A stretch of 64,000 bases of DNA, taken from the NCBI GenBank assembly GCA_018971305.1, contig JAGXBC010000003.1, positions 28,325 through 92,324 of the forward strand, in the 5' to 3' direction. Below, piece by piece: positions 11,859 through 46,809 of this stretch. Positions within the stretch are counted from its first letter, which is position 1, and each line of letters starts with the position of its first letter. The translations under genes were made by a program, and so were the position numbers. Source of the stretch: Patescibacteria group bacterium. GTDB lineage: Bacteria > Patescibacteriota > Minisyncoccia > UBA6257 > 2-01-FULL-56-20. The notes under the pieces are model-generated. The model had not been told where the DNA came from. It ran no database searches and saw nothing but the letters and a program-made list of their open reading frames with translations.

Positions 11859-11870
11859 AAAGCAAGGCAT

Positions 11871-12113: not shown

Positions 12114-12176
12114 CCACCACCGCCTTCGGCGGGGTATAAGATTTTGTAATCTCGCTTCGCTCAAACAAAATCTAAT

Positions 12177-12356
12177 ATGGCAAAATCAAAGCATTCAGAC
12201 AACTTAATAGTTCTGCGCTGCTCCGTCTGTAAGCGGAGGAATTACTACGCGAGTAAGAATAAAAAGAAAGTTGAACGCAAGCTGGAATACAAGAAGTATT
12301 GCAAGTGGTGCAGAAAACCCACCGTTCATAAGGAGGCCAAGATAGGAGGTAAATAA
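12177..12356 (+). CDS. rpmG: 50S ribosomal protein L33
   Basis: 59 aa, below the ORF-track cutoff. MAKSK...LRCSVCKRRNYY...KYCKWCRKPTVHKE carries the CxxC..CxxC zinc ribbon. Confidence 0.8.
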   Translation: MAKSKHSDNLIVLRCSVCKRRNYYASKNKKKVERKLEYKKYCKWCRKPTVHKEAKIGGK

Positions 12357-12386
12357 TATTTTGGCAATAAGTTAGAATTTAGAGGT

Positions 12387-12416
12387 CGTATCCCCCGGGG
12401 ATGTTCTCGGGATACG
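12387..12416 (+). other. hairpin CGTATCCC...GGGATACG abutting the tRNA-Trp 5' end
   Basis: 8-bp perfect stem. Possible processing or termination element after rpmG. Confidence 0.35.
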
Positions 12417-12417
12417 T

Positions 12418-12488
12418 GGGGGCATCGTTCAGTGGTAGGACAGCGGTCTCCAAAACCGCTAACGTGGGTTCGATTCCTACTGCCCCCG
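12418..12488 (+). tRNA. tRNA-Trp (anticodon CCA)
   Basis: Acceptor GGGGGCA/TGCCCCC, anticodon loop CTCCAAA. Confidence 0.8.
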
Positions 12489-12493
12489 CTAGC

Positions 12494-12527
12494 AAAAACT
12501 GATATTCACTATGAGTATCAGTTTTTG
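12494..12527. terminator. hairpin AAAACTGATA...TATCAGTTTT
   Basis: 10-bp stem with A and T flanks. Bidirectional-terminator-like. Confidence 0.5.
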
Positions 12528-12656
12528 GTATTGAGTACGAGGAATCGAACAGGAAAGGGGTCGGGAAAACTCTAGTTTTCCCGTGGCGGAAATATTAAAA
12601 CCGAGGGGTTTTAAAAGCGAGCGTAGCGAGCGCGTGAGATTCCCTTGGGCCATAGG

Positions 12657-12670
12657 CCTACTGCCCCCGC
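12657..12670 (+). repeat. 14-nt duplicate of the tRNA-Trp 3' end (CCTACTGCCCCCGC)
   Basis: Exact copy of the tRNA's 3' acceptor/T-stem region, about 170 nt downstream of the gene. Confidence 0.5.
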
Positions 12671-12742
12671 CCTCCGTATACATTGATTTTCCCCAAGTCG
12701 TGCTTCGCTTGTGTTTATAACCACTATGGTATAATTAACTTA

Positions 12743-13816
12743 ATGAATCGCCAAGGTTTTGCGCCGATAATCATCCTGCTTATTGTGGCGGGAATGTTAG
12801 TGATCGGCGGCGGTATTTGGTATTACAAAGCACATCCACCCGCAGCGTCATTAAATCAGCAGCAAAGTGAGTCTTCTACCTCTTCAGCCGCCACAACTGC
12901 GGGACCAATGGTCTGCGCCGCAAACGATATACATTGTCTCGCAGCCGCCGCCCAAAACTGCTCTCAGGCGAGCGTGGAATGGACACAAACATCAACCGTT
13001 CAAAATGTCTTCAATCAGACCACACAAATCAATCTCGCTATTAAAGGTCTTGATGCTACGGGGCGGTGTTCTTTTTCTGCCCGCATGGACAGCGTTGATC
13101 TCAGTTTAACAACGCAAGAGGAACAACAGGCGAAAGCGGCAGGGAACTCGGACGCGCGCATTCAACAGTTGTTACAGGGAGCAACGACTTTGGCGAGACA
13201 ACAATCGGTTGGTGCCGTTATTTCCTGTAGTTTCGCATCCAACAATCTCGTTCAGATACTCAATGATTTTGGCACGGCCAATCTTACATCGGACAATTGC
13301 ACCAAGACGTCCCCGGCCGGCACTAGTGTGCCGCTGCCTACGGGAACATCACCCGCACCAACCGGTGAACAATCCACCAGCTCTCCAATCTCTATTTCTC
13401 CTGCATCAACTTGGAGGACATATAGCGACAGTCAAGTAGGAATGACTATTCCATATCCGCCGAATTCTTCTCTGAGCGCCACTTTTTATATCGCAGGTTC
13501 AAGAACCATTACAATACTTAGTTCACAGTTGCGTGTGACAATTAACGTATCGCCTGCAAGTCGCTATAGCGTTTCTGGGCAAGCTGCAATTTACGAAGGT
13601 CAATTACAAAGTTATCCGACTTATTCAACCACCACGGCTAGCATAGCTGGTTATCCCACTCAAGTAATTTCGGCCGGTGATTCGTCCCTGGAACATGTTG
13701 CGTATGTGTTCGCAGCGGGTTCCCGAATATTCGACATCGACACTGCCTATGCTGGTTCTCTCGCAAAAGCCGATCTCGATAAGATGATTGGGGGGATTAC
13801 TATGATTGGGCAATAG
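12743..13816 (+). CDS. membrane-anchored Ser/Thr-rich extracellular protein (hypothetical)
   Basis: Probable start MNRQGF. A single N-terminal TM segment is followed by a low-complexity S/T/Q-rich ectodomain. Confidence 0.55.
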   Translation: MNRQGFAPIIILLIVAGMLVIGGGIWYYKAHPPAASLNQQQSESSTSSAATTAGPMVCAANDIHCLAAAAQNCSQASVEWTQTSTVQNVFNQTTQINLAIKGLDATGRCSFSARMDSVDLSLTTQEEQQAKAAGNSDARIQQLLQGATTLARQQSVGAVISCSFASNNLVQILNDFGTANLTSDNCTKTSPAGTSVPLPTGTSPAPTGEQSTSSPISISPASTWRTYSDSQVGMTIPYPPNSSLSATFYIAGSRTITILSSQLRVTINVSPASRYSVSGQAAIYEGQLQSYPTYSTTTASIAGYPTQVISAGDSSLEHVAYVFAAGSRIFDIDTAYAGSLAKADLDKMIGGITMIGQ

Positions 13817-14229
13817 CCCTAACACCTTCGGAAAGCCTGCTCGCCATCGTCAAGCCGTCCCTTCGTAGACCGCTTCCACGCAGAACATTCTTCCCCGACG
13901 ATCTCTCGATAGGAATTTCAGCCGTTCCGGGGGCGGGCAATGCTACGGGCAGTTCTGCCCGTAGCAATCTTCCAATTTCTGCTGAATTTTCAATGCTTTC
14001 GAGGTTAGACAAAAACCCTACTTGCGTGTGTTCTCGCGCTCATCCGCGCTTCGAGTGAGCTCTCGAATACATGCCATCGCAGACGTGAGAGATGGGTCCT
14101 GGGCGTTAATGAGGGCTCCTATATCCCTCACGTAGCTCCGCTCCTATTATCGTTTTTAACAGGTGATTAATTTGCCTGGAAATTTCCATTTTTGCGATAA
14201 ATTGCTAATCTGTTAATGAAGTTATTAAA
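13817..14229. other. ORF-free, comparatively GC-rich 400-nt stretch with a perfect hairpin (GCTACGGGCAG-TTC-TGCCCGTAGC); candidate structured RNA
   Basis: No convincing ORF on either strand. 11-bp perfect hairpin at about 13936-13960. Confidence 0.2.
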
Positions 14230-14301
14230 GGGCCGTTAGCTCAGTGGTAGAGCGCCTCATTTGCAATGAGGAGGCCACCGGTTCGATCCCGGTACGGTCC
14301 A
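14230..14301 (+). tRNA. tRNA-Ala (anticodon TGC)
   Basis: Acceptor with the G3:U70 Ala identity pair, anticodon loop TTTGCAA, T-loop TTCGATC. Confidence 0.8.
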
Positions 14302-14316
14302 CGTTTTTATATGGTA

Positions 14317-14344
14317 TTGCTTTTTAGATAGGATATGGTATAAT
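14317..14344 (+). promoter_or_regulatory. sigma70-like promoter (-35 TTGCTT, 16-nt spacer, -10 TATAAT)
   Basis: Consensus -10 hexamer at 14339-14344. Confidence 0.45.
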
Positions 14345-14351
14345 GAGACGC

Positions 14352-14650
14352 AGATGTTGCAAATAAATTTTGTTTAGAGGAGAAAAACTATGGTAGTGGA
14401 AGTAATGACAGTGAAAGTTGGGGTAGTCGTGAAAAGCGCGAGGTTCTCGTTGGATGTGGCGAGCGTCGACCAGAACACATTAAGTTTCTCCCATAAAGTC
14501 TGCGGTGGTTGCGGGGCCAGGTTTGGCTCCGCGGAACGATTCCATATCCACGGGAAGAGCGTTTATAAGAATACGGCCTTCCCGGATCGAAAGCATTAAT
14601 TTCTCCTGCGTGGCGCCTCATCGTGAGGCGCCACATTTCTTTTTTTTGGA
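14352..14650 (+). other. promoter-to-terminator transcript of about 300 nt: small CxxC ORF (14390-14599, 69 aa, SD AGGAGA) or an ncRNA
   Basis: Bounded by the promoter above and a strong terminator. The antisense frame gives Arg-rich junk. Confidence 0.3.
14610..14649 (+). terminator. rho-independent terminator GTGGCGCCTCA-TCG-TGAGGCGCCAC + U-tract
   Basis: 11-bp perfect stem followed by TTTCTTTTTTTT. Confidence 0.8.
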
Positions 14651-14678
14651 GTCTTGTTTTAGAATCATTCATGAAGAT

Positions 14679-14765
14679 GGTGGGGTGGCTGAGTGGCCGA
14701 AGGCGCCGCACTCGAAATGCGGTATACTCGAAAGGGTATCGTGAGTTCGAATCTCACCCCCACCG
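14679..14765 (+). tRNA. tRNA-Ser (anticodon CGA)
   Basis: Acceptor GGTGGGG/CCCCACC, anticodon loop CTCGAAA, long variable arm. Confidence 0.8.
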
Positions 14766-14848
14766 CACTCAGTACTTTTTATCGGCAGACGCGAGTGCAT
14801 AAAAATTATTGTTGAACGTTAAATATTTCAAGGTTGGCGACATAGTTA

Positions 14849-29054: not shown

Positions 29055-29125
29055 ATTTATAGTGCTGGGGGGCTTGGAATCGGACCAAGATTCACGGCTT
29101 CAAAGGCCGCTGTCCTACCGTTAGA
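29055..29125 (-). tRNA. tRNA-Gln (anticodon TTG)
   Basis: Reverse complement folds as a cloverleaf: U1:A72 acceptor TGGGGGG/CCCCCCA, anticodon loop CTTTGAA. Confidence 0.7.
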
Positions 29126-29163
29126 CGACCCCCCAATCGTTGCGCTATACTAATTTAGTATAA

Positions 29164-29706
29164 ATGAGAAACAAGCGCAATAAAAATAGTGGGTGGGTCA
29201 TTTTTATTTTAGTGATGGTAACTTTCGGAATGCTCGGTTTGGGCGGGGTTTTTTCGGCCATCATACCCACTCAACCCGCACAGAATCAAACCCCCGATAA
29301 TCAACAGAATTCCAATGCTTCGTCCTCACGTGAACTGGCTCTGAGCTGCACATCCGATACGCTTACGCAGTTTCATATACACCCAACTCTTACGATAATC
29401 GCAAACGGCGTTAAGCAAACGATTCCTGCGAATATCGGCATTACCGCCGATTGTCTTCGCGTGATTCACACTCACGACGACACCGGTGTCATTCACGTTG
29501 AATCGCCGCAGGCCGAAAATTTCACGCTGGGAGATTTTTTCGCAGTTTGGGGTAAGGTGTTCAACCAAGGCCAAGTTTTGGACTATAAGGCAGACGCAGG
29601 CCATGAGATAGTTATGACCGTGGACGGCAAGCCGAGCACGGAGTACGAGAATTTAATCTTAAAAGACGGACAGAAGATAGTTGTTGAATATAAGAATAGA
29701 CAGTAG
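29164..29706 (+). CDS. membrane-anchored His-rich extracellular protein (hypothetical)
   Basis: N-terminal TM, Q/N-rich linker, then HIHP...VIHTHDD...IHVE. Confidence 0.5.
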   Translation: MRNKRNKNSGWVIFILVMVTFGMLGLGGVFSAIIPTQPAQNQTPDNQQNSNASSSRELALSCTSDTLTQFHIHPTLTIIANGVKQTIPANIGITADCLRVIHTHDDTGVIHVESPQAENFTLGDFFAVWGKVFNQGQVLDYKADAGHEIVMTVDGKPSTEYENLILKDGQKIVVEYKNRQ

Positions 29707-29769
29707 GAAGTAAGGGATAGAAAGCACGAAGCGAAGAGCAATCGTTGAAAAACGTGTTAAAATTTTATA

Positions 29770-30120
29770 ATGGACATCAAGATAATTAAGGACCCGATTA
29801 AAAGAAACGAGCTCGCAGAAATGGCGCGCGTCGGATTCGGTGATATCGTTAAGGCGGTAGTGGACATAAAACAAGAAATTATGGCGGTCGGAGGCGAATT
29901 GCATGCCGACGAAGAGGTTTTACTTTCAGAACAACAGAAATCGGGAAGAGAAAATACATGGGGAATAAATTTATATCCAGAAATATCCGGGGAAGAATGG
30001 ATAGAATTTGATTCCATGATAAATCTAAAGCCCGCCGCTGGAAATCGTTCCCGCGGAGTTGAAGATATTAATATTCAAAAGAAAATCAGAGAGATCGTCG
30101 GGAAATTAATTGAGGAATAA
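29770..30120 (+). CDS. hypothetical protein (116 aa)
   Basis: Clean ORF. Stop abuts the start of the next gene, suggesting an operon. Confidence 0.5.
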   Translation: MDIKIIKDPIKRNELAEMARVGFGDIVKAVVDIKQEIMAVGGELHADEEVLLSEQQKSGRENTWGINLYPEISGEEWIEFDSMINLKPAAGNRSRGVEDINIQKKIREIVGKLIEE

Positions 30121-30122
30121 TT

Positions 30123-30464
30123 ATGCCCAAGACACTGTTTCTTCATAAAGAATTGGCAGCCGGCCGATGGTCTGAATTTTCCCTCAAAGAACAGCTTGGC
30201 AATATCGGTAGCGAGGTTTCCCGCGCCAAAAATTGGCAGGGAAAAAACGAAAAGTTGTTTCGGGGCGCAGTGGAACGAGCGTTGGAGCTTTTTGACTTAA
30301 CTCTGGCAGATCCGCGCTGGAGGGGGCGGTACAGGGAAGTTGCTAGGGCCCGAGAAGTTTTCTGCGATGCTGTCTATGGCGGAAAATTATATAAAAGTTC
30401 TCTTGAGGAGTTAGTGCAATACTTTGACCATTTCGCTTTATCCGCTAGAAACGTCGGTTATTGA
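30123..30464 (+). CDS. MazG-like nucleotide pyrophosphohydrolase-like protein (tentative)
   Basis: All-helical 113 aa with an LKEQLGNIGSEVSRA acidic motif reminiscent of the MazG EExxE helices. Confidence 0.35.
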   Translation: MPKTLFLHKELAAGRWSEFSLKEQLGNIGSEVSRAKNWQGKNEKLFRGAVERALELFDLTLADPRWRGRYREVARAREVFCDAVYGGKLYKSSLEELVQYFDHFALSARNVGY

Positions 30465-30557
30465 TATTCAATTTCAGATATGGCAAGTTGTTTTCGCCTA
30501 ATCAGGTAATTCACAGGGTGGGGAGTTTTTTTCTGTTTAAGGTGTTAAAATAAGTTC

Positions 30558-32177
30558 ATGGAGGCCTCTAACGAAAAAAGAAACGCGAGGCGTTTTTCCG
30601 ATGTTCACCATTCAAGGAAGAAAGGATGGAGAGCTTGGTTTAATTTTCTGGGGAAACACGGGAAAACCGTTAATTTAAAGCCGCCATTTTATAAGAGATA
30701 CCCAGTAGTCGCCGGTTTTATTGTCGTCTTGGCCGTTGTTTCCGTTTTCGGAGCCAAGAGATTGTTTACGCGGGCGGAAGTTGCGGATTTTTACCCCTCA
30801 AACTGTCTCGGTTCTTGGCAGGGTCCGCAAAACGCCCAGGGCAAGCCGGAGATGCTCGCACCCATATCCACCTCCACGATTTTCGGAGAAGATAATTCCG
30901 CTGTTTTCAATTCCGGCACGGGGCAGATTTTCTGCGGAGGTTTCTTGCCCGGCAATTACGCTTCTTCGAGCGATATAAAAAGCGTTGGTCTTACTTTCGT
31001 CTGGCAAGTGGGGGAGCCGTCGGCAACCTCAACTTTTCCCCAGGGAGCCCTAATCACAACCTCAACAATTTCTACGTCTACTTCTGCGAGCGCGGATACG
31101 GCGACTGGTACGGATCAAGTAACTCAGGTTGTAGGGCAGGGTGCTGCATTAGAGCAGGGGAGCAGCACCGATGTACAACAGACCGCCCCGGCCGATTCCA
31201 GCGCGACGACTCCTGCGGATTCCGGCGGGGCAATTCCTCCGCAACAGATAAATCCGGAGCCAGTTCCGCCGACAAATTCCAGCGATACCACTTCCACGAC
31301 ATCGTTTTTATACAATTTACGAGGTTTATTATTTAATGTAGCTTTCGCTCAATCTGATTCAACAAGTTCACCGCAGGTAACGAGCGATACTATTCCGGTT
31401 GCGAACGATACAACAACAACCGTTAGTAAGCCGCAAAATATTTCAACGCCAGCTTCGCCGTCTCCATCCAACGAAACGACGACGGTATCAGAACAGGTAA
31501 CGCAGAAAGCGGGACAACAAACACAGAGCACAAAACAAGGAACACAGAACATAGAGCAAGCGACAACGACCGGTGCGGAACCATCAACGACCATAATTAT
31601 CGGCCCGACCATCACGGCGTCCCTCACCCCGCTTACTACTTCCACCGACGCTTCGGGAACATATGTGATTATGAATGCAACTGATACTCTTGCTACGGGA
31701 ACCGAGCCCGTTGTTCCGCCGCCCGCTCCAGACGAAAACTTCCTGAAGATAAGTTATAGCACCGATGGCCAGACCTGGACGGAGATAGCAAAAGTGAACG
31801 ATAATAACTGGCAGAATTTTACCGTTACCCTGCCTATTAATAATTGGGAAATCTTGAAGAAATTACAGATACAAGTGGAAGGAATTCCCACAACCCTTAA
31901 CCCCACCCCCAAGGTTTATCTGGATGGAATGTTTGCCGAAGTCCATTACGAGCTTTCTCCGGAATTCGCCGCCGCTCTGAGCGGCGATCAATCCCTGGAT
32001 GGCCAAAATTCTTCTTCAAGCGTTACCACAACTACTATTGGAGGGGTTACGGTAATCGTTCTCCCGCCATCGCAAAAGCCGGTATCCGACAATCCGAAGC
32101 AGCAGGATACATTCCGTGCCGACCAAACACCGCAATTCAATTTTGATCTGAATTCTATATCGGTTCCGGGGCAGTAA
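30558..32177 (+). CDS. membrane-anchored Ser/Thr-rich low-complexity surface protein
   Basis: TM at residues about 50-70, long S/T/P/Q-rich middle, globular C-terminal domain. Confidence 0.5.
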   Translation: MEASNEKRNARRFSDVHHSRKKGWRAWFNFLGKHGKTVNLKPPFYKRYPVVAGFIVVLAVVSVFGAKRLFTRAEVADFYPSNCLGSWQGPQNAQGKPEMLAPISTSTIFGEDNSAVFNSGTGQIFCGGFLPGNYASSSDIKSVGLTFVWQVGEPSATSTFPQGALITTSTISTSTSASADTATGTDQVTQVVGQGAALEQGSSTDVQQTAPADSSATTPADSGGAIPPQQINPEPVPPTNSSDTTSTTSFLYNLRGLLFNVAFAQSDSTSSPQVTSDTIPVANDTTTTVSKPQNISTPASPSPSNETTTVSEQVTQKAGQQTQSTKQGTQNIEQATTTGAEPSTTIIIGPTITASLTPLTTSTDASGTYVIMNATDTLATGTEPVVPPPAPDENFLKISYSTDGQTWTEIAKVNDNNWQNFTVTLPINNWEILKKLQIQVEGIPTTLNPTPKVYLDGMFAEVHYELSPEFAAALSGDQSLDGQNSSSSVTTTTIGGVTVIVLPPSQKPVSDNPKQQDTFRADQTPQFNFDLNSISVPGQ

Positions 32178-32247
32178 GTCGCTCAAATCCGATTTTCGGA
32201 AAATTTACAGGAGCGCGGCACCTTAAATTACCCGAAGGCGGCATTTT

Positions 32248-32844
32248 TTGACGCAGGGAAACGTTTTTAAGCACAAACTCGGCCGAAATGTTAAAATTCA
32301 AGAAATGATTTCCAGAGAAAATAATTTCGCGTTTATAGACAGTCAAAATCTTAATCTCGGCATTCGCGTTCAAGGTTGGGAGCTTGATTTCGCGCGGTTT
32401 CGTATATATCTCAAAGACAAATACAGTATTACCAAAGCGTTCCTTTGTATCGGTTATGTGAAGGGCAACGAAGGTCTATACAAATATCTTCAAGAGAGCG
32501 GGTACATTTGTGTTTTTAAGCCGACTCTTGAGTTACCCGACGGGGACGTAAAGGGCAACGTTGATGCTGAGCTTGTCTTATATACCATGATGCATATCAA
32601 TGATTTCGACCGCGCGCTCATTATTAGCGGCGATGGAGATTTTCACTGCCTTATTGAGCACCTCTTGGAACAGAAAAAACTGCTTGTGTTTATGGTGCCC
32701 AACAGAAAAAAATATTCAGGCCTATTGAAGCGGAAAGATTTTTTGCCACATACTCGATTCGTTGCCGATATCAGAAATATGGTCCAAAAAAAGAAAGACC
32801 CCGACGAGGACAAAACCTTGTCAGGGCACCCTTTCCGTTCGTGA
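32248..32844 (+). CDS. NYN-domain (LabA-like) putative ribonuclease
   Basis: AFIDSQNL...VDAELVLYTM...LIISGDGDF is the NYN/PIN-like signature. Confidence 0.7.
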   Translation: MTQGNVFKHKLGRNVKIQEMISRENNFAFIDSQNLNLGIRVQGWELDFARFRIYLKDKYSITKAFLCIGYVKGNEGLYKYLQESGYICVFKPTLELPDGDVKGNVDAELVLYTMMHINDFDRALIISGDGDFHCLIEHLLEQKKLLVFMVPNRKKYSGLLKRKDFLPHTRFVADIRNMVQKKKDPDEDKTLSGHPFRS

Positions 32845-32872
32845 TAACTATATTGTAGTAAAACCCCATAAC

Positions 32873-35800
32873 ATGTCAAGAGCTAAGCTGTGCATAGCAA
32901 AAATTCGCGGATGGGCTCGCCGGGCACCCGGCAGCAGACGTCGCGGAGAAATTTTAGCCTGCGTGACACTTGCTATTGTGGTTTCGGTGCTTGCGATATT
33001 GGTAACCGTAAAATTTTCCCCGGTTGTGAGAGCGCAAATTTCCCAAAGCGAACTGCCTACTCCGCAAAACTTAGTTGTCGCGAAAATCATAGACCCGGTA
33101 GGGAGATTAACGAACCTGCAGCCGCTTATAATTATCGCCAATAATCAGTTGCACGTGAGCGTTCCCGAGCCGAAATTCAGTTTCCGCCCGGGGAAATATA
33201 AACTGGAGCTTTGGATCTGGCAGGGCGGAAACATTTATTACACGGAAAATGATTTTAGCTGGGGAGTGCTCGCGGTAAATTTCAATAAATCAATCTATAA
33301 CCTCGGCGATAAGTCCAAAATCGGCCTCGCAGTTCTGGACGACCAAGGACATACTATTTGCAATGCTGATATGGATATGAATATCGTCTCGCCTTCCGGA
33401 AAAACATCGTATTTTTCAACGCAAGACAAAACCATTTCGCACAATCTCTCTTGCGGTCCGGGAAGCGTCACTAACGACCCGGACTATTCGGCCACAATTC
33501 TTGCCGGAGAAGTCGGAACTTATAATGTTTCTGTTACGGCGAGAACCGCTAACGGTACGAGGCAGATTTCCGATAAGTTTGAAGTGCAGAATCCGCCGAT
33601 GTTTGACGTGGAGCGCAACGCCCCGACAAGAATTTTCCCCCCGGCAACTTATAAGGTTTCCATTGCCGTAAAGGCGAACGATAATTTCCACGGAAATATC
33701 ACGGAAACTGTTCCTGGAACTTTTGATGTTACTGCTTCTAGTGCCGAGACGACGCTTGTCAAATCTTCTGGCTCTCCTACCTTGGATACAAAAATCATTT
33801 CTTGGCCTGTAAATTTAAAAAAAGGAGATTCTGTATCTTTAACCTATTCTTTCAAGGCTCCGGATGTGAGTCCGGAACTCTATAAATTGGGGCCGCTTCA
33901 GATCGGCAATTGGAGCGAAGCTCGGCAGTGGCAGGTGGCGGCGGACTCGGTGGCGAACACGGTTATTTTTATCACCTCGCTTGCTTCCACAACCTGGCAG
34001 GTTCCTAATGATTGGAACAATACTTCCAACACCATTGAGCTTATTGCCGGCGGCGGTGGTGGTGCTACGAACAGCGGGACTGGCGGCTCGTCAAACCGCG
34101 GAGGCGCCGCGGGCGGCGGTGGCGCTTATGCCATGATTACCAATTTTTCCACTTCTACTGGCAATCTCGTCAAAATTGGAGTTGGTACAGGGGGAGCCGC
34201 GCAAGCTACCGGCACTCTTACGTATTTCAACTGGAGCGGCGGTGGCACTACCTCTACTTGCAGTGGAACAACCATGCAATTATGCGCTATGGGCGGCGGC
34301 CGGGCTGTAACAGGTAACCCGGGCAGTTTCGGTACCGGAGGCGCGAGCTCAACAAGCGTTGGAACTGTCAAGTATGGCGGTGGTCCTGGTGGCGCTGATG
34401 CGTTGAGCAAGACAGCCGGAGCAGGCGGCGGCGGCGCCGGCGGTCCGAGCGGAGACGGCCAAGGCGGTACTAATACAACTATTGGAACTGGCGGAGCTGG
34501 AGATGCCGGTGTCGCTGCTGGCGGTACGGGAGGTTTAACGGGAACCAACCCGGGCGGTACCGGCGGTCCGGGTTCGGAGTGGACTTCCAATCCCGGTGGT
34601 GTGAGCGGCGGTTCCGGCGGCGGCGGCGGCGGATCCACGGGCAACTCAAGTACCGGCGGTACCGGAGGTAACTACGGCGGCGGCGGAGGAGGCGGTAGGA
34701 GCTCCGGCGGCGCCGGAGGCGTTGGCCAGCAAGGCATCATAGTCATCACCTATACGCCTTCAACTATTACTATGGCCGATGGCACGCAACCCGCTAACGT
34801 AACCGTTGGCCCTGGCGCGAATGCCACAACGAGCGCGGTTTTTACTTTAGTAACGAACAACAATACTGTTACGAGTTCCATTACAAGTATTGACGTGAAT
34901 ATCGCGACGACCACCGGCGTTTTCCAGGTGCAGATTGCCGATAACGCCGGGACGACTATTTACGGCTCAAGCACTAATCCGGGTTCCACCTCGCTTACGA
35001 TCAATACGACAAATATGGTTGTTTCCACAACAACTCTTACTTTTCGCACAATGATCAAACCGCTTGACGCGACTTCCATGCCCACGACTCCAGTGAGCGG
35101 CGCGGGCGCGGTGGGCGGTACTTACGTGGTTACCTCCACGCTCCCCGGAACTTTCACCGATAACAAAAGCTGGGATCATGCCGGCGCTAACACCACATCT
35201 TCCATTATCACCATAGACAACCTTTCGCCGGCGGACGTCACGAACGCTTCCGGCACTGTGGCCAGCAGCAGCGTGGCTTTTACCTGGAATAATCCAGGTG
35301 ATACGGATTTTGCGACGACGACCATAGTGCGGGCAACATCATCAATTTCCATAATTCCCACCGAAGGAACATATTATACTGTCGGACAAACCCTTAACGC
35401 CACAACCACTGTTGTCTGCGTTGTCGCCTCAAGCAGCGCTTCCAATTGCACCGATAGCGGCCTTACTGCCGGCACGACATATTACTATATGATTTTTACC
35501 GCGGACAATTACCTCAACTATTCTTCGGGGACCGTGCCGACGAACAATCCTTTTACGCCGAGCAATAACCAGCCGCCGACAGTTTCCGCCGTTTCTTTAA
35601 ACCACGGCAACGCCATAACTCTGACTCCGAACGCCACGACTTCTTTTGACCTGAACTGGAGCGTTTCCGACCCCGACGGATGCGCGAACATTAATACGAA
35701 CACCGCCACCTCCACGGCTTTCCGCCTCGGCGTCAAATCCACTTGCGCCGTTCCCGGCCCGACAACGAGCAGTTTGAGTTGCTATCTTTATCTGACGCGG

Positions 35801-36385
35801 ACGACATCCACCTGTTCCGGCACGACAATCAACACTACCGACACCGTGGGAATTTATTACTTCGCCGATTCCACGGGCAACAATTCTTCCACTTATCCAT
35901 CCGACCATTGGGAAGCGTTCGCTCTCGCAAGTGATGCCGCGGGCGCCACCTCCAGCGCGACCTCCACCAACGTGGACATCAATGTTCTTTCCGCGGTGAA
36001 CGTCACAACTTCCTCCATTGACTATTCAACGGTTACGGCTTCTTCCACGAGTGCCGAGCAGATTGCCACAACGACGAATGCCGGCAACTCCACAACCTCC
36101 ATTCAGCTTTACGCTTTGAGTACGCTCTCGTGTTCCAGCGGCGGCTGCAACGGCACTTCCATCACGACGAGCTCTCAGCACTACGCGAGCTCAACGGGAG
36201 CATCGTTTGATAGTACCGTCGCCCTGACCGATTCCCCGGTTACCCTAACCGGCATTAAACTGAAAACTCCCACAAGCACCGTAAATGTTTCCCAAGGCAC
36301 TTTCTGGTTCCTGAACGTTCCGGCCGGAACCGCAACAGGAACTTTCAGCGGCACGAACGTTTTCTCGCCGGCGTGGAGCCCATAA
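32873..36385 (+). CDS. giant (1,170 aa) membrane-anchored surface protein with central glycine-rich (ALK/Gly_rich-like) domain and C-terminal 4-Cys domain
   Basis: ATG at 32873 (MSRAKLC) followed by a TM segment. Residues about 400-620 are poly-G blocks alternating with beta strands (IELIAGGGGGA...GGAAGGGGAY...IIVITYTP). The last 320 aa are paralogous to gene 36920-37885. Confidence 0.7.
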   Translation: MSRAKLCIAKIRGWARRAPGSRRRGEILACVTLAIVVSVLAILVTVKFSPVVRAQISQSELPTPQNLVVAKIIDPVGRLTNLQPLIIIANNQLHVSVPEPKFSFRPGKYKLELWIWQGGNIYYTENDFSWGVLAVNFNKSIYNLGDKSKIGLAVLDDQGHTICNADMDMNIVSPSGKTSYFSTQDKTISHNLSCGPGSVTNDPDYSATILAGEVGTYNVSVTARTANGTRQISDKFEVQNPPMFDVERNAPTRIFPPATYKVSIAVKANDNFHGNITETVPGTFDVTASSAETTLVKSSGSPTLDTKIISWPVNLKKGDSVSLTYSFKAPDVSPELYKLGPLQIGNWSEARQWQVAADSVANTVIFITSLASTTWQVPNDWNNTSNTIELIAGGGGGATNSGTGGSSNRGGAAGGGGAYAMITNFSTSTGNLVKIGVGTGGAAQATGTLTYFNWSGGGTTSTCSGTTMQLCAMGGGRAVTGNPGSFGTGGASSTSVGTVKYGGGPGGADALSKTAGAGGGGAGGPSGDGQGGTNTTIGTGGAGDAGVAAGGTGGLTGTNPGGTGGPGSEWTSNPGGVSGGSGGGGGGSTGNSSTGGTGGNYGGGGGGGRSSGGAGGVGQQGIIVITYTPSTITMADGTQPANVTVGPGANATTSAVFTLVTNNNTVTSSITSIDVNIATTTGVFQVQIADNAGTTIYGSSTNPGSTSLTINTTNMVVSTTTLTFRTMIKPLDATSMPTTPVSGAGAVGGTYVVTSTLPGTFTDNKSWDHAGANTTSSIITIDNLSPADVTNASGTVASSSVAFTWNNPGDTDFATTTIVRATSSISIIPTEGTYYTVGQTLNATTTVVCVVASSSASNCTDSGLTAGTTYYYMIFTADNYLNYSSGTVPTNNPFTPSNNQPPTVSAVSLNHGNAITLTPNATTSFDLNWSVSDPDGCANINTNTATSTAFRLGVKSTCAVPGPTTSSLSCYLYLTRTTSTCSGTTINTTDTVGIYYFADSTGNNSSTYPSDHWEAFALASDAAGATSSATSTNVDINVLSAVNVTTSSIDYSTVTASSTSAEQIATTTNAGNSTTSIQLYALSTLSCSSGGCNGTSITTSSQHYASSTGASFDSTVALTDSPVTLTGIKLKTPTSTVNVSQGTFWFLNVPAGTATGTFSGTNVFSPAWSP

Positions 36386-36387
36386 AT

Positions 36388-36440
36388 GTAGAATTTTCAA
36401 TTATCAATTTTCAATTTACAATGAATTTTTAATTTTTAAC
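36388..36440. repeat. left inverted repeat of CAATTTTCAA-type units flanking the four-helix-bundle gene
   Basis: ttttcaattatcaattttcaatttacaatg. The reverse-complement units reappear at 36823-36855. Confidence 0.5.
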
Positions 36441-36445
36441 TATTA

Positions 36446-36796
36446 ATGATGAGCAGTAAATATAATTTAGAAGAACGAACCGCAAAATTCGGAGAAAACA
36501 CTATAGAGTTTTGTAAAAGTGTTAAGCAAGACACGATTAGCAGACCAATCATCAGCCAACTTATTAGATCGGCGACCAGCATCGGTGCAAATTATTGCGA
36601 AGCCAATAACGCCAGCTCAAAAAAGGACTTCAAAAATAAAATATTTATTTGTAAAAAAGAATGTCAAGAAACGAAGCATTGGTTGCGAATGATTACGCAA
36701 TGCGCGCCAGAACAAAAAGAAAAAATTGCAGCGCTATGGCAAGAATGCCAAGAATTAACAATGATTTTTCAGAAGATTATTTCCTCGTCTAGCTAA
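36446..36796 (+). CDS. four-helix-bundle protein (23S rRNA intervening-sequence protein family)
   Basis: ...SIGANYCEANNASSKKDFKNKIFICKKECQETKHWL is the family signature. Confidence 0.8.
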   Translation: MMSSKYNLEERTAKFGENTIEFCKSVKQDTISRPIISQLIRSATSIGANYCEANNASSKKDFKNKIFICKKECQETKHWLRMITQCAPEQKEKIAALWQECQELTMIFQKIISSSS

Positions 36797-36822
36797 ATGT
36801 GCGGCATTACTCCTAAATAACG

Positions 36823-36873
36823 GGTTGAAAATTGGAAATTGATCATTGAAAATTGCCCCGCCTGCGGCGGGGG
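36823..36873. repeat. right inverted repeat (TTGAAAATTG units) plus GC hairpin CCCCGCC-TGC-GGCGGGG
   Basis: Reverse complement of the left repeat units. Hairpin at 36856-36873 matches the one at 11842. Confidence 0.5.
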
Positions 36874-36919
36874 AGTTATCCACATCCTTTATAAATCATA
36901 ATCTGTTATAATAAATCTA

Positions 36920-37885
36920 ATGATGAGTCATAAGAACTCCGGTTTAGCCTATATAGGCGTAGTATTGCTCTCGGCCGTTTTGATTTTGGCCGTTTTTGCC
37001 GGTTTCAGTACTGCTTTCGGGGCAGCTTCAAGCACGGTTTCCACAACGGTAACCGTAGGAAACGCGACGCCGACGGTTACCTCGGTTTCTTTAAATAATG
37101 GTAGTGCGATAGTCCTGACTCCGAATGCCACCACGTCTTTTAATATCAATTATACGGTCTCCGACAATAACGGTTGCGCTGATATTAATACGAATAATAT
37201 GACCTCTACGGCTTTTAGGAATGGGGACTCTTCTAATTGTGCGAAACCCAGCCCGACGACCAGCAATACGAGCTGTTATCTCTTTATATCTTCAACGCGC
37301 ACCACAAGCACTTGCCAGGCCAGCGTAACTATCAACGTAACCGACACTGTGCAGATCTATTACTTCGCGGATTCCACCGGAAACAACTCGTCTACTTTCT
37401 CAACCGACCACTGGGAGGCCTATGCGACGGCTCACGATGCTTCTGATGCTAGCAGTAGTGCGACATCCACCTCCGTCGACATAAATGTTTTAACGGCAGT
37501 TAACGTGACGACTTCTTCAATCAACTACAGTTCCGCCGGCAACCTCTCGGCTTCTTCCACGAGCCCTCAACAGAACGCAACGACAACCAATGCCGGTAAT
37601 TCGACAACTTCTCTTCAGCTCTATGCCCTGCAGACGCTCGCAACGGGAACGATATCAATCGCCACCGGTTCTCAACATTATGCTACGACTACAGGACAAT
37701 CATTTGACGCCGGCAGCGTAGCCTTAACCGACACCCCGGTAACCGCTACGGGTTTCAAGCTCTTAACTCCAACAGCGACGAATAGCGTCGGCACATCTAC
37801 CTACTGGTTCCTGAACGTTCCGGCCGGAACGAATCAAGATACTTATACAGGCACTAACGTTTTCTCTCCGAAGTGGTCACAGTAG
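36920..37885 (+). CDS. membrane-anchored protein paralogous to the C-terminal domain of the giant protein
   Basis: Alignable end to end with residues about 890-1170 of 32873-36385: four conserved Cys and an identical 27-nt DNA stretch (ctggttcctgaacgttccggccggaac). Confidence 0.65.
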   Translation: MMSHKNSGLAYIGVVLLSAVLILAVFAGFSTAFGAASSTVSTTVTVGNATPTVTSVSLNNGSAIVLTPNATTSFNINYTVSDNNGCADINTNNMTSTAFRNGDSSNCAKPSPTTSNTSCYLFISSTRTTSTCQASVTINVTDTVQIYYFADSTGNNSSTFSTDHWEAYATAHDASDASSSATSTSVDINVLTAVNVTTSSINYSSAGNLSASSTSPQQNATTTNAGNSTTSLQLYALQTLATGTISIATGSQHYATTTGQSFDAGSVALTDTPVTATGFKLLTPTATNSVGTSTYWFLNVPAGTNQDTYTGTNVFSPKWSQ

Positions 37886-37998
37886 TTATGTCTCATAGAA
37901 TTCTTTTTGGAATATAATAAGTTTCAATTTGAAAATGGATCATGATAAAATTGAATAATCAATAGGACTTCGGTACTACCAATGACTTACTCTCTGTT

Positions 37999-40537
37999 TT
38001 GGTTAGAATGAAAAACTTGTTGCTGATAGTGTTTGTTTTGGTGATAGCAATAATAGTATTAGTTCCCCAGTCCAAAGCTGCAGCAGTCCTAATTCCTAAT
38101 CAACCCAATATCGGTAGTCTGTTGGGATCTGGAACCGTTGTCAGTCAGCCCATCGGCGCAGGTTTTTTCGGATACAATCAGCGGTCTTGATTTTAATATA
38201 GTAAATCTAAATGGTCTTATAGCCTCTTGGTTCAAGGTTGATCTTTGTACATATCCATCCAGTTCACCTAGTAATGATTGTGGGCAAGAAAATCAGATTG
38301 GCATTACCGAAGGCCTTACGCCAGTAGGTGTTGGCATACGCCATGTTAGTTTTAATCAACCAATTACTATAAATCCTAATGATTTTGTAGTTTTGCGCTA
38401 TTGCGCTGCCTTTAATAATACTACTTATGATTGTGTGGGATCTGGCAACGGCACCTTTACTTTTTCGGGGATCACCAGCACCAATCCTGGTTGGTATCCA
38501 TGGCCGCAGTATTTATATGTGGTTTGGCAGCATGCGTCTCTATCTAATTTACAGCAATTTGAATCTGATGGAGTGACTGTTATTCCATCTGGGGGCGCTA
38601 TTCCAGAAAATACTGTGGTTCTGGCTGCAAATGTTGTGGGTGCGGCAGACAATACGGTACAACTACAGGTTGAAGTGGAACCAAATAATATTCCATTTTC
38701 TGGGATTCCAACCTTAAGCAGCTCCTTTGTTCTTTCTGGGGATATTACAACGATAACCGTGCCTAATATTCTAGATGGTCAATATCATTGGCAAGCTCGC
38801 GCAGTGGATTCTGAAGGAAATACGTCGCCCTGGAGTTCGGGCAGTAATTTTGTTATTGATACCATGCCTCCGACAATATCTTATAATCGGCCATCTCCAT
38901 ATTATATAATTAACACATCCGCCATATTTTCTTTTTATGCAAATGATAATGGAGGAACCGGAATTAATGATCTTTCAGCATTGCTTGATGGGAAATTATT
39001 CGACTTTGGTCCTACCGTCGGATCTGTTTTAAACCTTGATCTTTCTGTTGGTACGCACACTATTATTATCAAAGCGAAGGATTATGCGGGCAATATTACT
39101 ACGTCCGATACGCTTACATATACTGTGCCAGCAGCAATGGTTGCCAATGGATCTCAGCTAACCGATCAATCTTATATAGGTGGTACCATAGGAACTTCAA
39201 ATGGAATTGTTGCGCAACCCATCGGTGCAGGATTCTCAGATACCGTCAGCGGACTTGATTTCTATGTACCAAGCCTGAACAACCTTATAGCCTCTTGGTT
39301 CAAGGTTGATCTTTGTACATATCCATCCAGTTCACCTAGTAATGATTGTGGGCAAGAAAATCAGATCGGCATTACCGAAGGTCGTGTGTCCGTTGGCACT
39401 GGTATTCGACACGTCAGTTTTACTCAGCCGCTTAATATTTCACCTGACAACTTTGTTATTTTGAGGTACTGCGCTGCCTTCAATGATATAAATTACAGTT
39501 GCATACCCAGTGGCAATGGTAGTTTTACTTTCGGTGGTGTTACCAGCACCAATCCTGGTTGGTATCCATGGTCGCAGTATTTATATATCAAATGGCAGCA
39601 CACTACGATAAATGGTTTGGCACAATATGAAGCAGATGGCATAACACCGCTTGGAACTAGCGCAACAAACACAATAGTGTTGTCCGGAAATGTTGTCGGT
39701 TCTATTGATCCAGTTCAACTCCAAGTTGAAATAGAGCCAAGTGGTGCCGCTTTTATTGATCAACTCACGGCAAGTAGTTCGTTTGTTTCATCTGGGAGTA
39801 CTGCCACCATTACGATATCTGATGTGGCTGATGGGGATTATCATTGGCAAGCTCGTGCGATGGATTCGGGGGGAATTGCATCTCCTTGGTTGCCATTTAG
39901 TGCCGTGCCAACAAACACAGACTTTGTTATAGATACGACTCCACCTGTAATTGCACACACCGCTATCGAACCCCAGTACATTCTTAATGGCACTCCACTA
40001 CAGTTTCAATTTTCTGCAACGGATAATGGTGGTGTTGGACTTTCAAATCTTGTAGCCACACTAGACGGTGTTGAATTTTCGTCGGGAGATTTTATAAATT
40101 TTACTCAAGTCGGTGTACACACAATTATAATTACTGCAAAAGATGCTGTCGGAAATATTTCTACATCAACTAATACTTATGATGTGGCTTATAATTTCGG
40201 AGGATTTCTCCCTCCAATACAAACTGATGGTAGTGGCGTGTATAAGTTGAAGAGGTCTTTAGCTGTTAAATTCCAACTCACAGATGCCAATGGTCAATAT
40301 GTAGACAATGCGGTTGCACGTTTATTAGTGACAAAAGTAGAAGACGGTATTTTAGGAACTGTTCCGATAGAATTATCAACATCTACTACGGACATCGGCG
40401 GATTATTCAAATACGACCCAATTAGTAATCAGTATGTTTACAGGTTAGACACCGGATCTTTAACCACTGGGACATGGCAATTGACAGCAGTACTAGACGA
40501 TGGCACGAGTTACTCTATATTAATATCATTAAGGTAA
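37999..40537 (+). CDS. secreted tandem-repeat surface protein, interrupted by a +1 frameshift at a T6 tract (38163-38168)
   Basis: The N-terminal signal-peptide ORF (37999-38190) ends ...SQPIGAGFFGYNQRS*. Removing one T gives ...QPIGAGFSDTISGLDF, which continues into ORF 38138-40537 and matches the second internal repeat (IVAQPIGAGFSDTVSGLDF). Confidence 0.6.
38216..38313 (+). repeat. 98-nt core of a 1,068-bp intragenic tandem duplication (copy 1; copy 2 at 39284-39381, one mismatch)
   Basis: Near-identical DNA in both copies. The flanking protein repeats (about 356 aa each) are otherwise about 60% identical. Confidence 0.75.
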
Positions 40538-40558: not shown

Positions 40559-40584
40559 AAAAAGGGGACAGCCCCCTTTTTTTG
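40559..40584. terminator. bidirectional terminator AAAAAGGGG-ACAG-CCCC-TTTTTTT
   Basis: Seen in sequence. Followed by two TTGTATAAT extended -10 boxes at 40601-40609 and 40623-40631. Confidence 0.7.
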
Positions 40585-41580: not shown

Positions 41581-42537
41581 ATGAAATGGAAAAAAATATT
41601 TTCGGTCTCCATCTTGGGGTTAATCGCCGTCATTGTTTGGTATGGTAAATTTTCAATTGCTAGGTCTGCGAGCGTAAGCGTCCCCACGGAAGTCGTAACA
41701 ACTCCCGCGGTAGTCAGGTTAACCCAGGATTATTTCAGGTGGTATGAAAATATTGATGCTCTGACCCCCTCAAGCACATTGGCTGCGGAGAATACGTCTA
41801 CCAGCGTCCCCGATTCAGGAACCGTCTTGCGGTTAAGGATGAATATTATTGACGGCAACGTGGATTTGCCGACGGGTACGGAATTCAAACTCCAATACGC
41901 CAATTCCACCTCTGGCCCCTGGACAGACTTGTCTACCTCAACTTCCTGGATATTTTTTAACAATCCCTCAGTTGCCGACGGGCAGATTATCCTAACGACA
42001 GTTTTGAGCAATTCCAACACGGGTGAAAGTTATAACGAATCAAATCCGTCGGCTTCCACTCCGAATACTGTCGTGCAGGGCCAAAGAGGCGAGTGGGACT
42101 GGGTGATTGAAAATAATTCCGCGGATACGGCAAGCAACTGGTTTTTCCGGATGATATATTCTTCAAGCACGGTGCTTGACTCTTACAACAGGTATCCCAA
42201 ATTAACTGCCGTGCCCGTGGTCACTCCACCGCCGTCTTCGGGCGGAGGGGGCGGTTCAACCGGTGTTGGTGGGGGACAGACGACTCCTCCACCGCCTTAT
42301 GTTCCGCCGGGCAATCAAACGACAACGCCACCGCTGCCGATACCGCCGCCGCTTTTGCCTCCGCCCATACAGGCCGTGGATTTTAATGGTGATAACCGAG
42401 TGAATATCATTGATCTTTCTATTCTTCTTTATTATTACAACAAAACCGGGCCGCAAATAACGCGCTACGATTTAAACAGGGATTTGGCGGTAGATTTCCC
42501 GGACGTATCAATAATGATGTTTTATTGGACTAGCTAG
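41581..42537 (+). CDS. secreted protein with Gly/Pro-rich linker and C-terminal dockerin-like domain
   Basis: Two Ca-binding-loop repeats, DFNGDNRVNIIDLSILL and DLNRDLAVDFPDVSIMM, in the D-x-N-x-D-x-x-V-N/D-x-x-D pattern. Confidence 0.55.
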   Translation: MKWKKIFSVSILGLIAVIVWYGKFSIARSASVSVPTEVVTTPAVVRLTQDYFRWYENIDALTPSSTLAAENTSTSVPDSGTVLRLRMNIIDGNVDLPTGTEFKLQYANSTSGPWTDLSTSTSWIFFNNPSVADGQIILTTVLSNSNTGESYNESNPSASTPNTVVQGQRGEWDWVIENNSADTASNWFFRMIYSSSTVLDSYNRYPKLTAVPVVTPPPSSGGGGGSTGVGGGQTTPPPPYVPPGNQTTTPPLPIPPPLLPPPIQAVDFNGDNRVNIIDLSILLYYYNKTGPQITRYDLNRDLAVDFPDVSIMMFYWTS

Positions 42538-42576: not shown

Positions 42577-42924
42577 ATGAGCAAAACGAAATCATTTAAA
42601 GATCTAATTGTTTGGCAAAAAGCTCGCGATTTGGCGGTGATTGTCTACGAACTCACCGAAAAATTTCCCAGATCAGAACTGTACGGACTAACAAGCCAAA
42701 TGAGGAGAGCAGCTATTTCCATATCTTCCAACATCGCAGAAAGTTATCACCGTTTTCATAGTAAGGAGAAAAATCAGTTTTTAGCCATAGCTTTTGGTTC
42801 CGGCTCGGAACTAGAAAGCCAAATGGAAATCTCCAAGGTTTTATTCCCACACTTAAATTATAAAGGAGCAGGGGAGCTTCTTGGCGATGTGATGAAAATT
42901 CTAAACAATTTTTTATCCAAATAA
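42577..42924 (+). CDS. four-helix-bundle protein (23S rRNA intervening-sequence protein family)
   Basis: DLIVWQKARDLAVIVYELTEKFP..E.YGLTSQMRRAAISISSNIAE...FL.IAFGS..ELESQ is the family signature. Confidence 0.8.
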   Translation: MSKTKSFKDLIVWQKARDLAVIVYELTEKFPRSELYGLTSQMRRAAISISSNIAESYHRFHSKEKNQFLAIAFGSGSELESQMEISKVLFPHLNYKGAGELLGDVMKILNNFLSK

Positions 42925-44646: not shown

Positions 44647-46809
44647 ATGGAAAGACCTCATAAAATAGGTGGATTTTGCCTATCATCTATGATAGCGGGC
44701 GGGTTTTTTCTGTTTGCCGTATTTTTCGCGGTAATTTCCCCGATTAAAGCTGAGGCCGCCGCCTCTCTTTATGTTTCTCCTCCGTCCGGCACATTTACGG
44801 TCGGCAGCACGTTTACGGTTTCTATTTACGTAAACAGCGGTGGCCAGTCTATTAATGCCGTAGAGGCGGATTTGAAATTTCCTGCGGATAGGTTGCAGGT
44901 TGTTTCGCCCACAACCGGGAAATCTCTTATTCAGGTTTGGGTAAGCCAGCCGACTTATTCAAATTTGGACGGTACGATGAAATTCCAGGGGACAATACCT
45001 AGTCCCGGAATAAATACGGATTCCGGTCTTATTTCCACTGTAACTTTCCGCGTGAAAAGCGTGGGTACAGCGTCGCTGCAAATTTTGGACAGCTCTCAAG
45101 TGCTTTTAAACGATGGCCTGGGCACTAATATATTGGGTCAGACTACGAGCGGTATTTATTATCTTGTTTTGCCGGCTCCTGCCGGACCGATAGTTACGTC
45201 GCGTACCAATCCGGATCAGTCCAAATGGTATAGCACTCATCAGGTGGTTTTTGAATGGAGTGCCCCGTCGGATATACAAGGTTATAGCTATATATTGGAT
45301 CAAGACCCGTCTGGAGAGCCGGATGATATTTCCGAAGGGACCAATACCAGGGTGGTTTATGACAAGCTTGCCGATGGCACTTATTATTTCCATATTAAGT
45401 CTTTACGGCAGGGCGCCTGGGGCGGAATTACCGATTATGTGGTGAATATAGATAACGATCCGCCGGCAAAATTTACAATAGATTTTTCTCCCGGAGACAC
45501 GACGTCTAATCACCGCCCGATAATTGACTTTACTACAACCGATAAAACTTCCGGACTGGATCATTATGAATTAAAAATTATTCCGCTGGATATGCCGCTC
45601 GCAGTGACAACCCAGAACGATACTCCATTTTTCATAGAAACCCAGCCGCCGTATTCCCAGCAATTGGCAGACGGAAGGTACGATGTTTATGTCCGGGCTT
45701 ACGATAAAGCAGGAAACTATTATCAAGCAGAGAGCAGGCTTACTATAACCAAGCCGATTTTTGAATTTTTGAGCCCGAGTGGTTTGAGTGTCAACGGTTT
45801 TACCTTGGGCTGGGCCTACACGGTTGTCTTGGGATTGCTATTTCTCGCGCTATTCGGATATTTCGGCTATAAGGCATGGACTTGGCATCGGTTAATTGAA
45901 GAATCTTTGGAGCACGGACCGCATAAGCATCCTGTGGTAGCCGAAAAACTTGAAGAGTTAAAGAAAAAACAAAAAGAATACGGATCGTCCGGAGGCACTA
46001 CAACAGCCCTTCTTACTCAGAATGATATCGACGGAAAAGAGCCGCCAGGCTCTATTGGCGGCACGGGTTTGATGATCTTGTTTGCCCTGGTAATATCTTT
46101 AGCGCTATTCGGACACGCGGTTAAGGCCCAGCAGAATGCGACTGGCAATGTTTCGGTTGAACCGCCCATAGTCACACTATTCCCCAAATCCATTTCCAAT
46201 GACGAGATCTTTTATATCGGCGGCAGAGCCGGGGCTCCTAACGCCAAGGTTTATATCTATCTGCAGAATGTGGACACAGGCAGCGCTTTGAATGAGATAG
46301 CGGTAACAGATGTTAGTGGCGCTTGGTTCTACTCTTTCCCGCAATTTCTGACTGCCGGGCGTTACATTGTCTGGACCCAGCTTAAGGTGAGCGATGCCTT
46401 GAGTTCACCGAGCCCGCAAATGAACTTGGAAGTCGCGCCGACCGCGATCCAATTCGGCGGCAACCGTTTCAGCTATCAGGATCTGTATTTTGTGTTGCTT
46501 CTTATATTCCTCGCGGCTTTCTGCGCATTGCTCGCATTCATTATTTACCACAGCTACCACTTCAGAATTAAAAATAGGCGATTGTCTTTGGCTATAGCGG
46601 CAGCGGAGGAATCTATCCGCCGCGGCTTCTCTGTTTTGCGCCGGGATATTGAAGAAGAGCTTAGCGTTATCCGCAAGGTCAAGCTTAATAAGGAGCTCTC
46701 CACCGAAGAAAAAATACGCGAAGAAAAATTAACTAAGGATTTTGAAGACGTAAATCGCTATGTTGGTAAGGAAATCTGGGAAGTGGATAAGGAGGAAAAG
46801 GATTTGTGA
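44647..46809 (+). CDS. large membrane protein with N-terminal cohesin-like domain
   Basis: SLYVSPPSGTFTVGSTFTVSIYVNSGGQSINAVEADLKFPADRLQV is cohesin-like. Several TM helices and a charged cytoplasmic tail follow. Confidence 0.5.
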   Translation: MERPHKIGGFCLSSMIAGGFFLFAVFFAVISPIKAEAAASLYVSPPSGTFTVGSTFTVSIYVNSGGQSINAVEADLKFPADRLQVVSPTTGKSLIQVWVSQPTYSNLDGTMKFQGTIPSPGINTDSGLISTVTFRVKSVGTASLQILDSSQVLLNDGLGTNILGQTTSGIYYLVLPAPAGPIVTSRTNPDQSKWYSTHQVVFEWSAPSDIQGYSYILDQDPSGEPDDISEGTNTRVVYDKLADGTYYFHIKSLRQGAWGGITDYVVNIDNDPPAKFTIDFSPGDTTSNHRPIIDFTTTDKTSGLDHYELKIIPLDMPLAVTTQNDTPFFIETQPPYSQQLADGRYDVYVRAYDKAGNYYQAESRLTITKPIFEFLSPSGLSVNGFTLGWAYTVVLGLLFLALFGYFGYKAWTWHRLIEESLEHGPHKHPVVAEKLEELKKKQKEYGSSGGTTTALLTQNDIDGKEPPGSIGGTGLMILFALVISLALFGHAVKAQQNATGNVSVEPPIVTLFPKSISNDEIFYIGGRAGAPNAKVYIYLQNVDTGSALNEIAVTDVSGAWFYSFPQFLTAGRYIVWTQLKVSDALSSPSPQMNLEVAPTAIQFGGNRFSYQDLYFVLLLIFLAAFCALLAFIIYHSYHFRIKNRRLSLAIAAAEESIRRGFSVLRRDIEEELSVIRKVKLNKELSTEEKIREEKLTKDFEDVNRYVGKEIWEVDKEEKDL

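Follow-up and report, generated by a model that had tools for sequence, protein, structure and literature searches.

Does a run of six T residues near the start of a putative surface-protein gene mark a switch, an error or a defect? The question is raised by a locus in a 64,000-nucleotide (nt) stretch of contig JAGXBC010000003.1, from assembly GCA_018971305.1 of a Patescibacteria group bacterium; this whole stretch is called the window below, and all positions refer to it. At this locus a single T6 run on the + strand holds a one-base shift that separates a short open reading frame (ORF A), which encodes a signal peptide, from a long one (ORF B), which encodes a protein body made of two tandem repeat units (Table 1). 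An initial annotation had taken the run for the classic slipped-strand on/off switch, leaving a sequencing or assembly error and a fresh pseudogene as alternatives. Our analysis argues that a genuine T5-to-T6 insertion has probably become fixed in a clonal population, and that the locus is now a young pseudogene or loss-of-function allele.

A gene interrupted in a T run

The translation of ORF A is MKNLLLIVFVLVIAIIVLVPQSKAAAVLIPNQPNIGSLLGSGTVVSQPIGAGFFGYNQRS up to its stop; it opens with MKNLLLIVFVLVIAIIVLVPQSKAAA and closes with GAGFFGYNQRS. It begins with a predicted Sec-type signal peptide (an MK n-region, a hydrophobic core of 17 residues, then PQSKAAA, with cleavage between SKA and AA), continues with the first 22 residues of repeat unit 1 and, past the shift, is out of frame down to its TGA. 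Removing one T yields a continuous ORF of 842 amino acids (aa) with the junction GAGFSDTISGLDF. The repaired junction, ...SQPIGAGFSDTISGLDF..., can be compared with the equivalent place in repeat 2, which opens GAGFSDTVSGLDF and reads ...AQPIGAGFSDTVSGLDF...; the restored GAGFSDT is identical to the repeat 2 junction. At the nucleotide level the T5 state, GGT TTT TCG GAT, encodes G-F-S-D, and repeat 2 encodes the same residues as GGA TTC TCA GAT, without any run. A full-length product, whether recoded or made in an ON state, would carry the junction ...QPIGAGFSDTISGLDF..., whereas the OFF product carries ...GAGFFGYNQR.

When the repaired protein was compared with the window by tblastn, residues 31–373 aligned to 39164–40186 with 58% identity. 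The similarity between repeats starts at residue 31, 22 residues upstream of the shift and in the frame of ORF A, and it continues downstream of the shift in the frame of ORF B. The most compelling sign of what appears to be one reading frame broken by a single inserted base is this cross-frame homology. Together with the 98-nt core shared by the two repeats (see below) it far exceeds chance, while the T6 tract itself is not unusual. The frame is thus interrupted relative to a homologous intact template, the gene's own repeat 2, as in a frameshift pseudogene, and the interruption is reproduced in other assemblies. Downstream of the shift the frame of ORF B is completely open, with no second lesion in 2.4 kb. 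The initial annotation's view of a single gene, signal peptide plus body, broken by an extra T in a T run is therefore supported by both the cross-frame homology and the 842-aa repaired ORF. It had also described the locus as more AT-rich than the core genome, which holds modestly: at 41.5% GC against 45.6% for the window, the gene falls in the lowest 3.3% of windows of its size. The deviation is no more than mild; it fits a lineage-specific surface gene and is diagnostic of nothing.

Table 1. Features of the split gene and of its repeats (positions in the window)
Feature	Position	Strand	Basis or remark
ORF A, 5' gene fragment	38008..38190	+	ATG 38008 to TGA 38190; translation and repeat homology from residue 31
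ORF B, 799-codon body, +1 frame relative to ORF A	38138..40537	+	open from TTG 38138
T6 run with one-base insertion	38163..38168	+	sequence; identical T6 in Logan contigs L003 and L006
Repeat unit 1, frameshift inside; orphan Cys-containing N-domain, Big_13-like immunoglobulin (Ig) module, Ig-like module	38098..39163	+	Pfam, tblastn
Repeat unit 2, 58% protein identity to unit 1; OmpL47-type barrel/Ig module at 40007-40174	39164..40186	+	tblastn, domain search
Candidate gene-conversion core, copy 1; 83-nt exact and 14-nt exact stretches, sole mismatch at 38299	38216..38313	+	repeat comparison
Candidate gene-conversion core, copy 2	39284..39381	+	repeat comparison
C-terminal PxKF domain (NCBIfam NF038114)	40202..40534	+	E = 2.4e-14, 53.6 bits against a cut-off of 35; ORF B residues 689-799
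Intrinsic-terminator-like hairpin followed by a T run, predicted to close the transcription unit	40559..40581	+	hairpin prediction

The intact gene would encode a signal peptide, two copies of a block made of an orphan N-domain, a Big_13-like Ig module and an Ig-like module, and the C-terminal PxKF domain after which NCBI names the 799-aa product ('PxKF domain-containing protein [Patescibacteria group bacterium]'). The Big_13 family (PF19077) is matched at E = 2.3e-12, with 47.7 bits for the whole protein against a gathering score of 27; no single stretch passes alone, and the best one, a Pfam match at 38738–38863, covers model positions 62–102 only. The OmpL47-type barrel match has E = 2.3e-10. 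The N-domain, of about 130 aa, opens each unit: a HMMER search of 1.84 billion representatives returned only itself and three weak matches to repetitive proteins, sequence search of PDB gave no match, and its AlphaFold model (predicted local distance difference test score, pLDDT, 50.7) was too poor for a fold search. No orthologue of the whole protein was found in protein clusters, GTDB genomes or JGI metagenomes, the last two giving distant relatives that share modules only. Judged from its sequence, the locus is likely to be a single gene, whose adhesin-like product would be secreted or exposed at the surface.

The origin of the sixth T

If the true genome carried T5, the gene would be an intact 842-aa one and the split an artefact of sequencing or assembly. 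Indels in homopolymers are frequent errors of some platforms, and the Prokaryotic Genome Annotation Pipeline (PGAP), which starts the GenBank protein at TTG 38138 without a signal peptide, set no pseudogene flag. However, the same run recurs wherever we could see it. Three accessions exist for the 799-aa product (MBU6500832.1, MDE2015609.1 and MDE2226666.1), each numbered consecutively with those of the flanking 321-aa and 305-aa genes, so that three metagenome-assembled genome (MAG) records carry the same split gene; their T6 is deduced from the identical 799-aa coding sequence. Logan contigs, which are k-mer assemblies (k=31) of separate SRA runs and were reached via the neighbouring genes, extend this: contig L003 (SRR32006850, seen in two samples) corresponds to window positions 29099–38245 (9147 nt) and contig L006 (SRR32006840) to 36236–38245 (2010 nt), both 100% identical to the window and both with T6. 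All five available assemblies or records, namely three GenBank records and the Logan assemblies of at least two SRA runs, therefore have T6, with no variation in tract length among them, which argues against a sequencing error. In addition, the window contains 44 A/T runs of 7–8 and 11 G/C runs of 6, six of them intergenic and the others inside ORFs, including that of lysyl-tRNA synthetase; those inside ORFs are read through correctly. Since longer homopolymers are intact and T6 is reproduced, an error specific to a platform or an assembler is unlikely, and we give the T5 genome very little credence. Widespread homopolymer frameshifts, a signature of long-read error, were considered and rejected, as the overlapping ORF pairs 27042/27070 and 32248/32762 turned out to be unrelated, separate genes; no other broken gene was found among the candidates checked. 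A protein search with the N-terminal part only, aimed at T5-state fragments, gave no matches, but it also missed the self protein (P0001), partial Logan products being apparently unindexed.

A genuine T6 could still belong to a reversible slipped-strand switch, in which T5 or T8 would be ON, T6 or T7 OFF, export would be toggled, and the sampled populations would happen to be OFF. The position of the tract suits this idea, as it is found 52 codons from the start of a surface-protein gene and a change in its length would turn the whole body on or off (T5 or T8 giving an 842/843-aa fusion). Downstream, the frame remains entirely open. A variable surface is also plausible in episymbionts such as Patescibacteria, which likewise speaks for a switch. 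The length of the tract does not suit it: accepted hypermutable tracts are poly-G/C of 7 or more and poly-A/T of 10 or more (PMC6321876), and T6 is far below this cut-off. Runs of six are commonplace here, as the window has 113 of them (51 T6 and 62 A6) besides the 44 longer A/T runs, the majority within genes that are ordinary and intact, and the tract is not exceptional against this background; no other homopolymer tract that we looked at interrupts a gene, and such tracts are not reserved for surface genes. Furthermore, T6 is found in all five assemblies or records, the ON version is missing from the databases (no 842-aa version among 5.8 billion protein clusters), and repeat 2 lacks any run at its paralogous site. 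The literature searched contained no paper on phase variation in Patescibacteria. The initial reading of the tract as a classic switch is thus not supported, and we regard phase variation as unlikely. A related proposal is that the T6 allele is not dead, being either a low-rate reversible switch (T5/T8 ON) in its OFF phase, aided by conversion from repeat 2, or the substrate of a +1/-2 slip on GGU-UUU-UUC that would supply full-length adhesin as a small and constant fraction. It strikes us as improbable; if it held, Patescibacteria (Candidate Phyla Radiation, CPR) would have their first described surface-protein locus of the contingency or recoding type.

The slip just mentioned leads to programmed recoding as an explanation in itself, in which a +1 slip of tRNA-Phe on U-UUU-UUC, a -2 shift or slippage of RNA polymerase would make the full-length secreted protein at a set ratio. 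Re-pairing of UUU with UUU in the +1 frame is possible and would yield exactly GAGFSDT, the correct protein, and the stable T6 across samples and the intact body also speak for such a mechanism. The surroundings of the run offer little to stimulate it, however. The A-site codon that follows the slippery UUU is UUC (Phe), neither a stop nor a rare or hungry codon, and the stop in the zero frame comes 7 codons later; no RNA structure is predicted downstream of the shift site (z = 0.09), and upstream only an AGG abuts the run, without a clear Shine–Dalgarno (SD)-like stimulator in a genome where SD motifs are rare. A third folding score among the regions tested was -0.99, and structure explanations were rejected. 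The canonical -1 heptamer, U-UUU-UUC, leads to the third frame and to a stop after 12 codons. Known sites of transcriptional slippage (mxiE, dnaX and endosymbiont cases) are runs of about 9 or more, against 6 nt here. Finally, none of the collections searched holds an orthologue in which the site could be conserved, and the paralogous repeat encodes the junction without a run. We consider recoding highly improbable.

The GenBank records imply yet another view, in which ORF B would be a functional stand-alone cytoplasmic protein initiated at TTG 38138 and ORF A an unrelated small secreted peptide. PGAP annotates it in this way in all three records. TTG 38138 is indeed the only canonical start in the frame of ORF B, but it lies inside ORF A and gives no signal peptide, and the frame has no canonical start after the ORF A stop. 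Moreover, the repeat homology runs upstream of this TTG in the other frame, and its domains (Ig-like, PxKF and OmpL47-type) are those of extracytoplasmic proteins. Two independent genes are thus hardly credible.

We therefore favor a genuine insertion that would have turned T5 into T6 52 codons into the gene. Translation stops after 60 residues in the T6 state, so that the ribosome would release a short peptide and the 799-codon body would be severed from its export signal. The allele of the sampled population would be a loss of function and, as the remaining frame is open, presumably a very young pseudogene. Reversion, by chance deletion of a T or by gene conversion from repeat 2, would be possible at ordinary mutation rates and would involve no specialised hypermutable switch. 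Among the options of the initial annotation the fresh pseudogene thus fits best, and the error is now unlikely. Several points weigh against this conclusion or soften it. T6 is known as an assembly consensus, and a minority T5 or T8 subpopulation is possible. The independence of the three MAGs and of the SRA runs, as samples or time points, is read only from the accession series, and all sequences are 100% identical, hence from one clonal population. The undamaged 2.4 kb downstream fits a recent event but fits equally well selection on a gene that is occasionally expressed. In the absence of an orthologue, the 'ancestral' T5 is deduced only from the internal paralogous repeat. Lastly, the missing ribosome-binding site at TTG 38138 is uninformative, as an SD-like motif is missing in 24 of the 42 well-supported genes of the window.

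The tandem repeat, its core and the neighbourhood

The two units of the body are spaced by 1068 nt start to start and are 58% identical over 351 aa, which bears out the 1,068-bp tandem duplication that had been proposed. Outside the core, the proportion of synonymous differences (pS) is 0.67–0.77, that is saturated, and the ratio of nonsynonymous to synonymous change (dN/dS) is about 0.16–0.19; the duplication would therefore be old, and both units long under purifying selection. Against this background the cores differ by one mismatch in 98 nt (T versus C), with a pS of 0.05. Since 31 of 32 third positions are identical between them, constraint on the protein is an inadequate explanation, and no RNA structure is predicted in the conserved core (z = 0.79). 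Recent intragenic gene conversion appears the best explanation for this core, for which the initial annotation had proposed ongoing conversion, so that about 98 nt of an old, selected duplication would have been homogenised recently; the process may still operate in the gene. The repeat is physically real, as the k=31 Logan contigs show by breaking, on both sides, exactly 30 nt inside the 83-nt exact stretch: L003 and L006 end at 38245, and L004 begins at 39337, which is 30 nt ahead of the mismatch. We surmise that the 83-nt exact repeat could allow in-frame gain or loss of one unit by recombination, and that conversion, if its tract extended another 48 nt upstream, could repair the frameshift. 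A second near-identical pair (38474–38518 and 39542–39586, one mismatch in 45 nt, encoding TSTNPGWYPW) may be another conversion tract. Repeat unit 2 also contains a G6 run (39868–39873), which is read through in frame.

The split gene looks like a stand-alone unit in an apparent surface-protein neighbourhood that comprises a dockerin protein, a cohesin plus Big_13 protein, other hypothetical proteins and two four-helix proteins resembling 23S-rRNA-IVP/bAvd. The dockerin-domain protein (41581–42537, E = 2e-06) and the cohesin plus Big_13 protein (44647–46809, E = 1e-08) are about 2 kb apart, which suggests a cohesin–dockerin surface assembly in a Patescibacteria genome. The two 23S_rRNA_IVP/bAvd-like four-helix-bundle genes (36446–36796 and 42577–42924, E = 4e-16 and 7e-31) lie amid putative secreted-protein genes. 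Because bAvd-like genes are close to a near-identical 98-nt pair, a diversity-generating retroelement with a template repeat/variable repeat (VR) pair was considered. It was rejected: no reverse transcriptase was found among the larger ORFs (more than about 110 aa) scanned at 29–49 kb, the cores differ at one T/C position and not at adenines, and both lie inside the N-domains of one ORF instead of forming a VR at the 3' end of a target.

Other features of the window are recorded here as observations. A weak Gly_rich_2 match is found in a very large ORF (32762–36385; 1207 aa from a TTG, 1170 aa in Logan), within which GC content jumps to 0.60 at 34001–36000, compared with 0.456 for the whole window. 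Contig L006 breaks at 36236, where the SRR32006850 contig runs through, which may reflect a repeat or strain-level branching close to the 3' end of this ORF in the SRR32006840 sample. Several genes have TATAAT 8–14 nt upstream of their ATG, examples of the SD-less/TATAAT set being 27070, 36920, 44647, 57761(-), 24613 and 40646; with the scarcity of SD motifs, this placement suggests leaderless or very short-leader mRNAs. Six tRNA genes (Thr-TGT, Thr-GGT, Trp, Ala, Ser-CGA and Gln) are found in 11619–14766 and 29064–29135, and Rfam detected tRNAs only over the window, with no other family at gathering score. Coding density is about 93% by a greedy ORF call that may overcount, as in a streamlined genome.

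Significance and comparison with known systems

The finding is real but ordinary. Its most direct use is a correction of annotation, as the 799-aa proteins of three GenBank records would be what a frameshift has left, without its signal peptide, of an 842-aa secreted protein. It also points to a lineage-specific, adhesin-like surface protein that a clonal population of Patescibacteria has probably lost or switched off, and it offers a clean small example of what appears to be intragenic gene conversion.

The protein resembles the PxKF/Big_13 Ig-like surface proteins (NF038114, PF19077) in its C-terminal PxKF domain and in its Ig-like modules, which score above curated cut-offs, and differs from them in the domain of about 130 aa at the start of each unit, for which the 1.84 billion representatives include no significant relative. 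The short, near-identical nucleotide tract inside saturated repeats recalls concerted evolution, or gene conversion, in tandem-repeat bacterial surface proteins, although here only about 98 nt (possibly another 45 nt) are homogenised, and between two copies only. With the simple sequence repeat contingency loci of Campylobacter, Neisseria, Haemophilus and Helicobacter the locus shares a tract in the 5' coding region of a surface-protein gene and its potential ON/OFF effect; in contrast with these loci, the tract is only T6, is not enriched over background and shows no length variation among assemblies. Similarly, a P-site codon able to re-pair in +1 (UUU-U) is reminiscent of prfB-type +1 programmed frameshifting, but the shift site has neither a stop nor a slow codon in frame, an SD-like stimulator with suitable spacing is missing, and so is evidence of conservation. 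The closest parallel is with frameshift pseudogenes, or loss-of-function alleles, of surface-protein genes. Compared with known cases, the present one lies in a streamlined Patescibacteria genome with no other broken gene among the candidates checked and has no intact orthologue; what it has in common with them is a one-base indel in a short T run, a remaining ORF that is intact, and an allele that is fixed in the sample.

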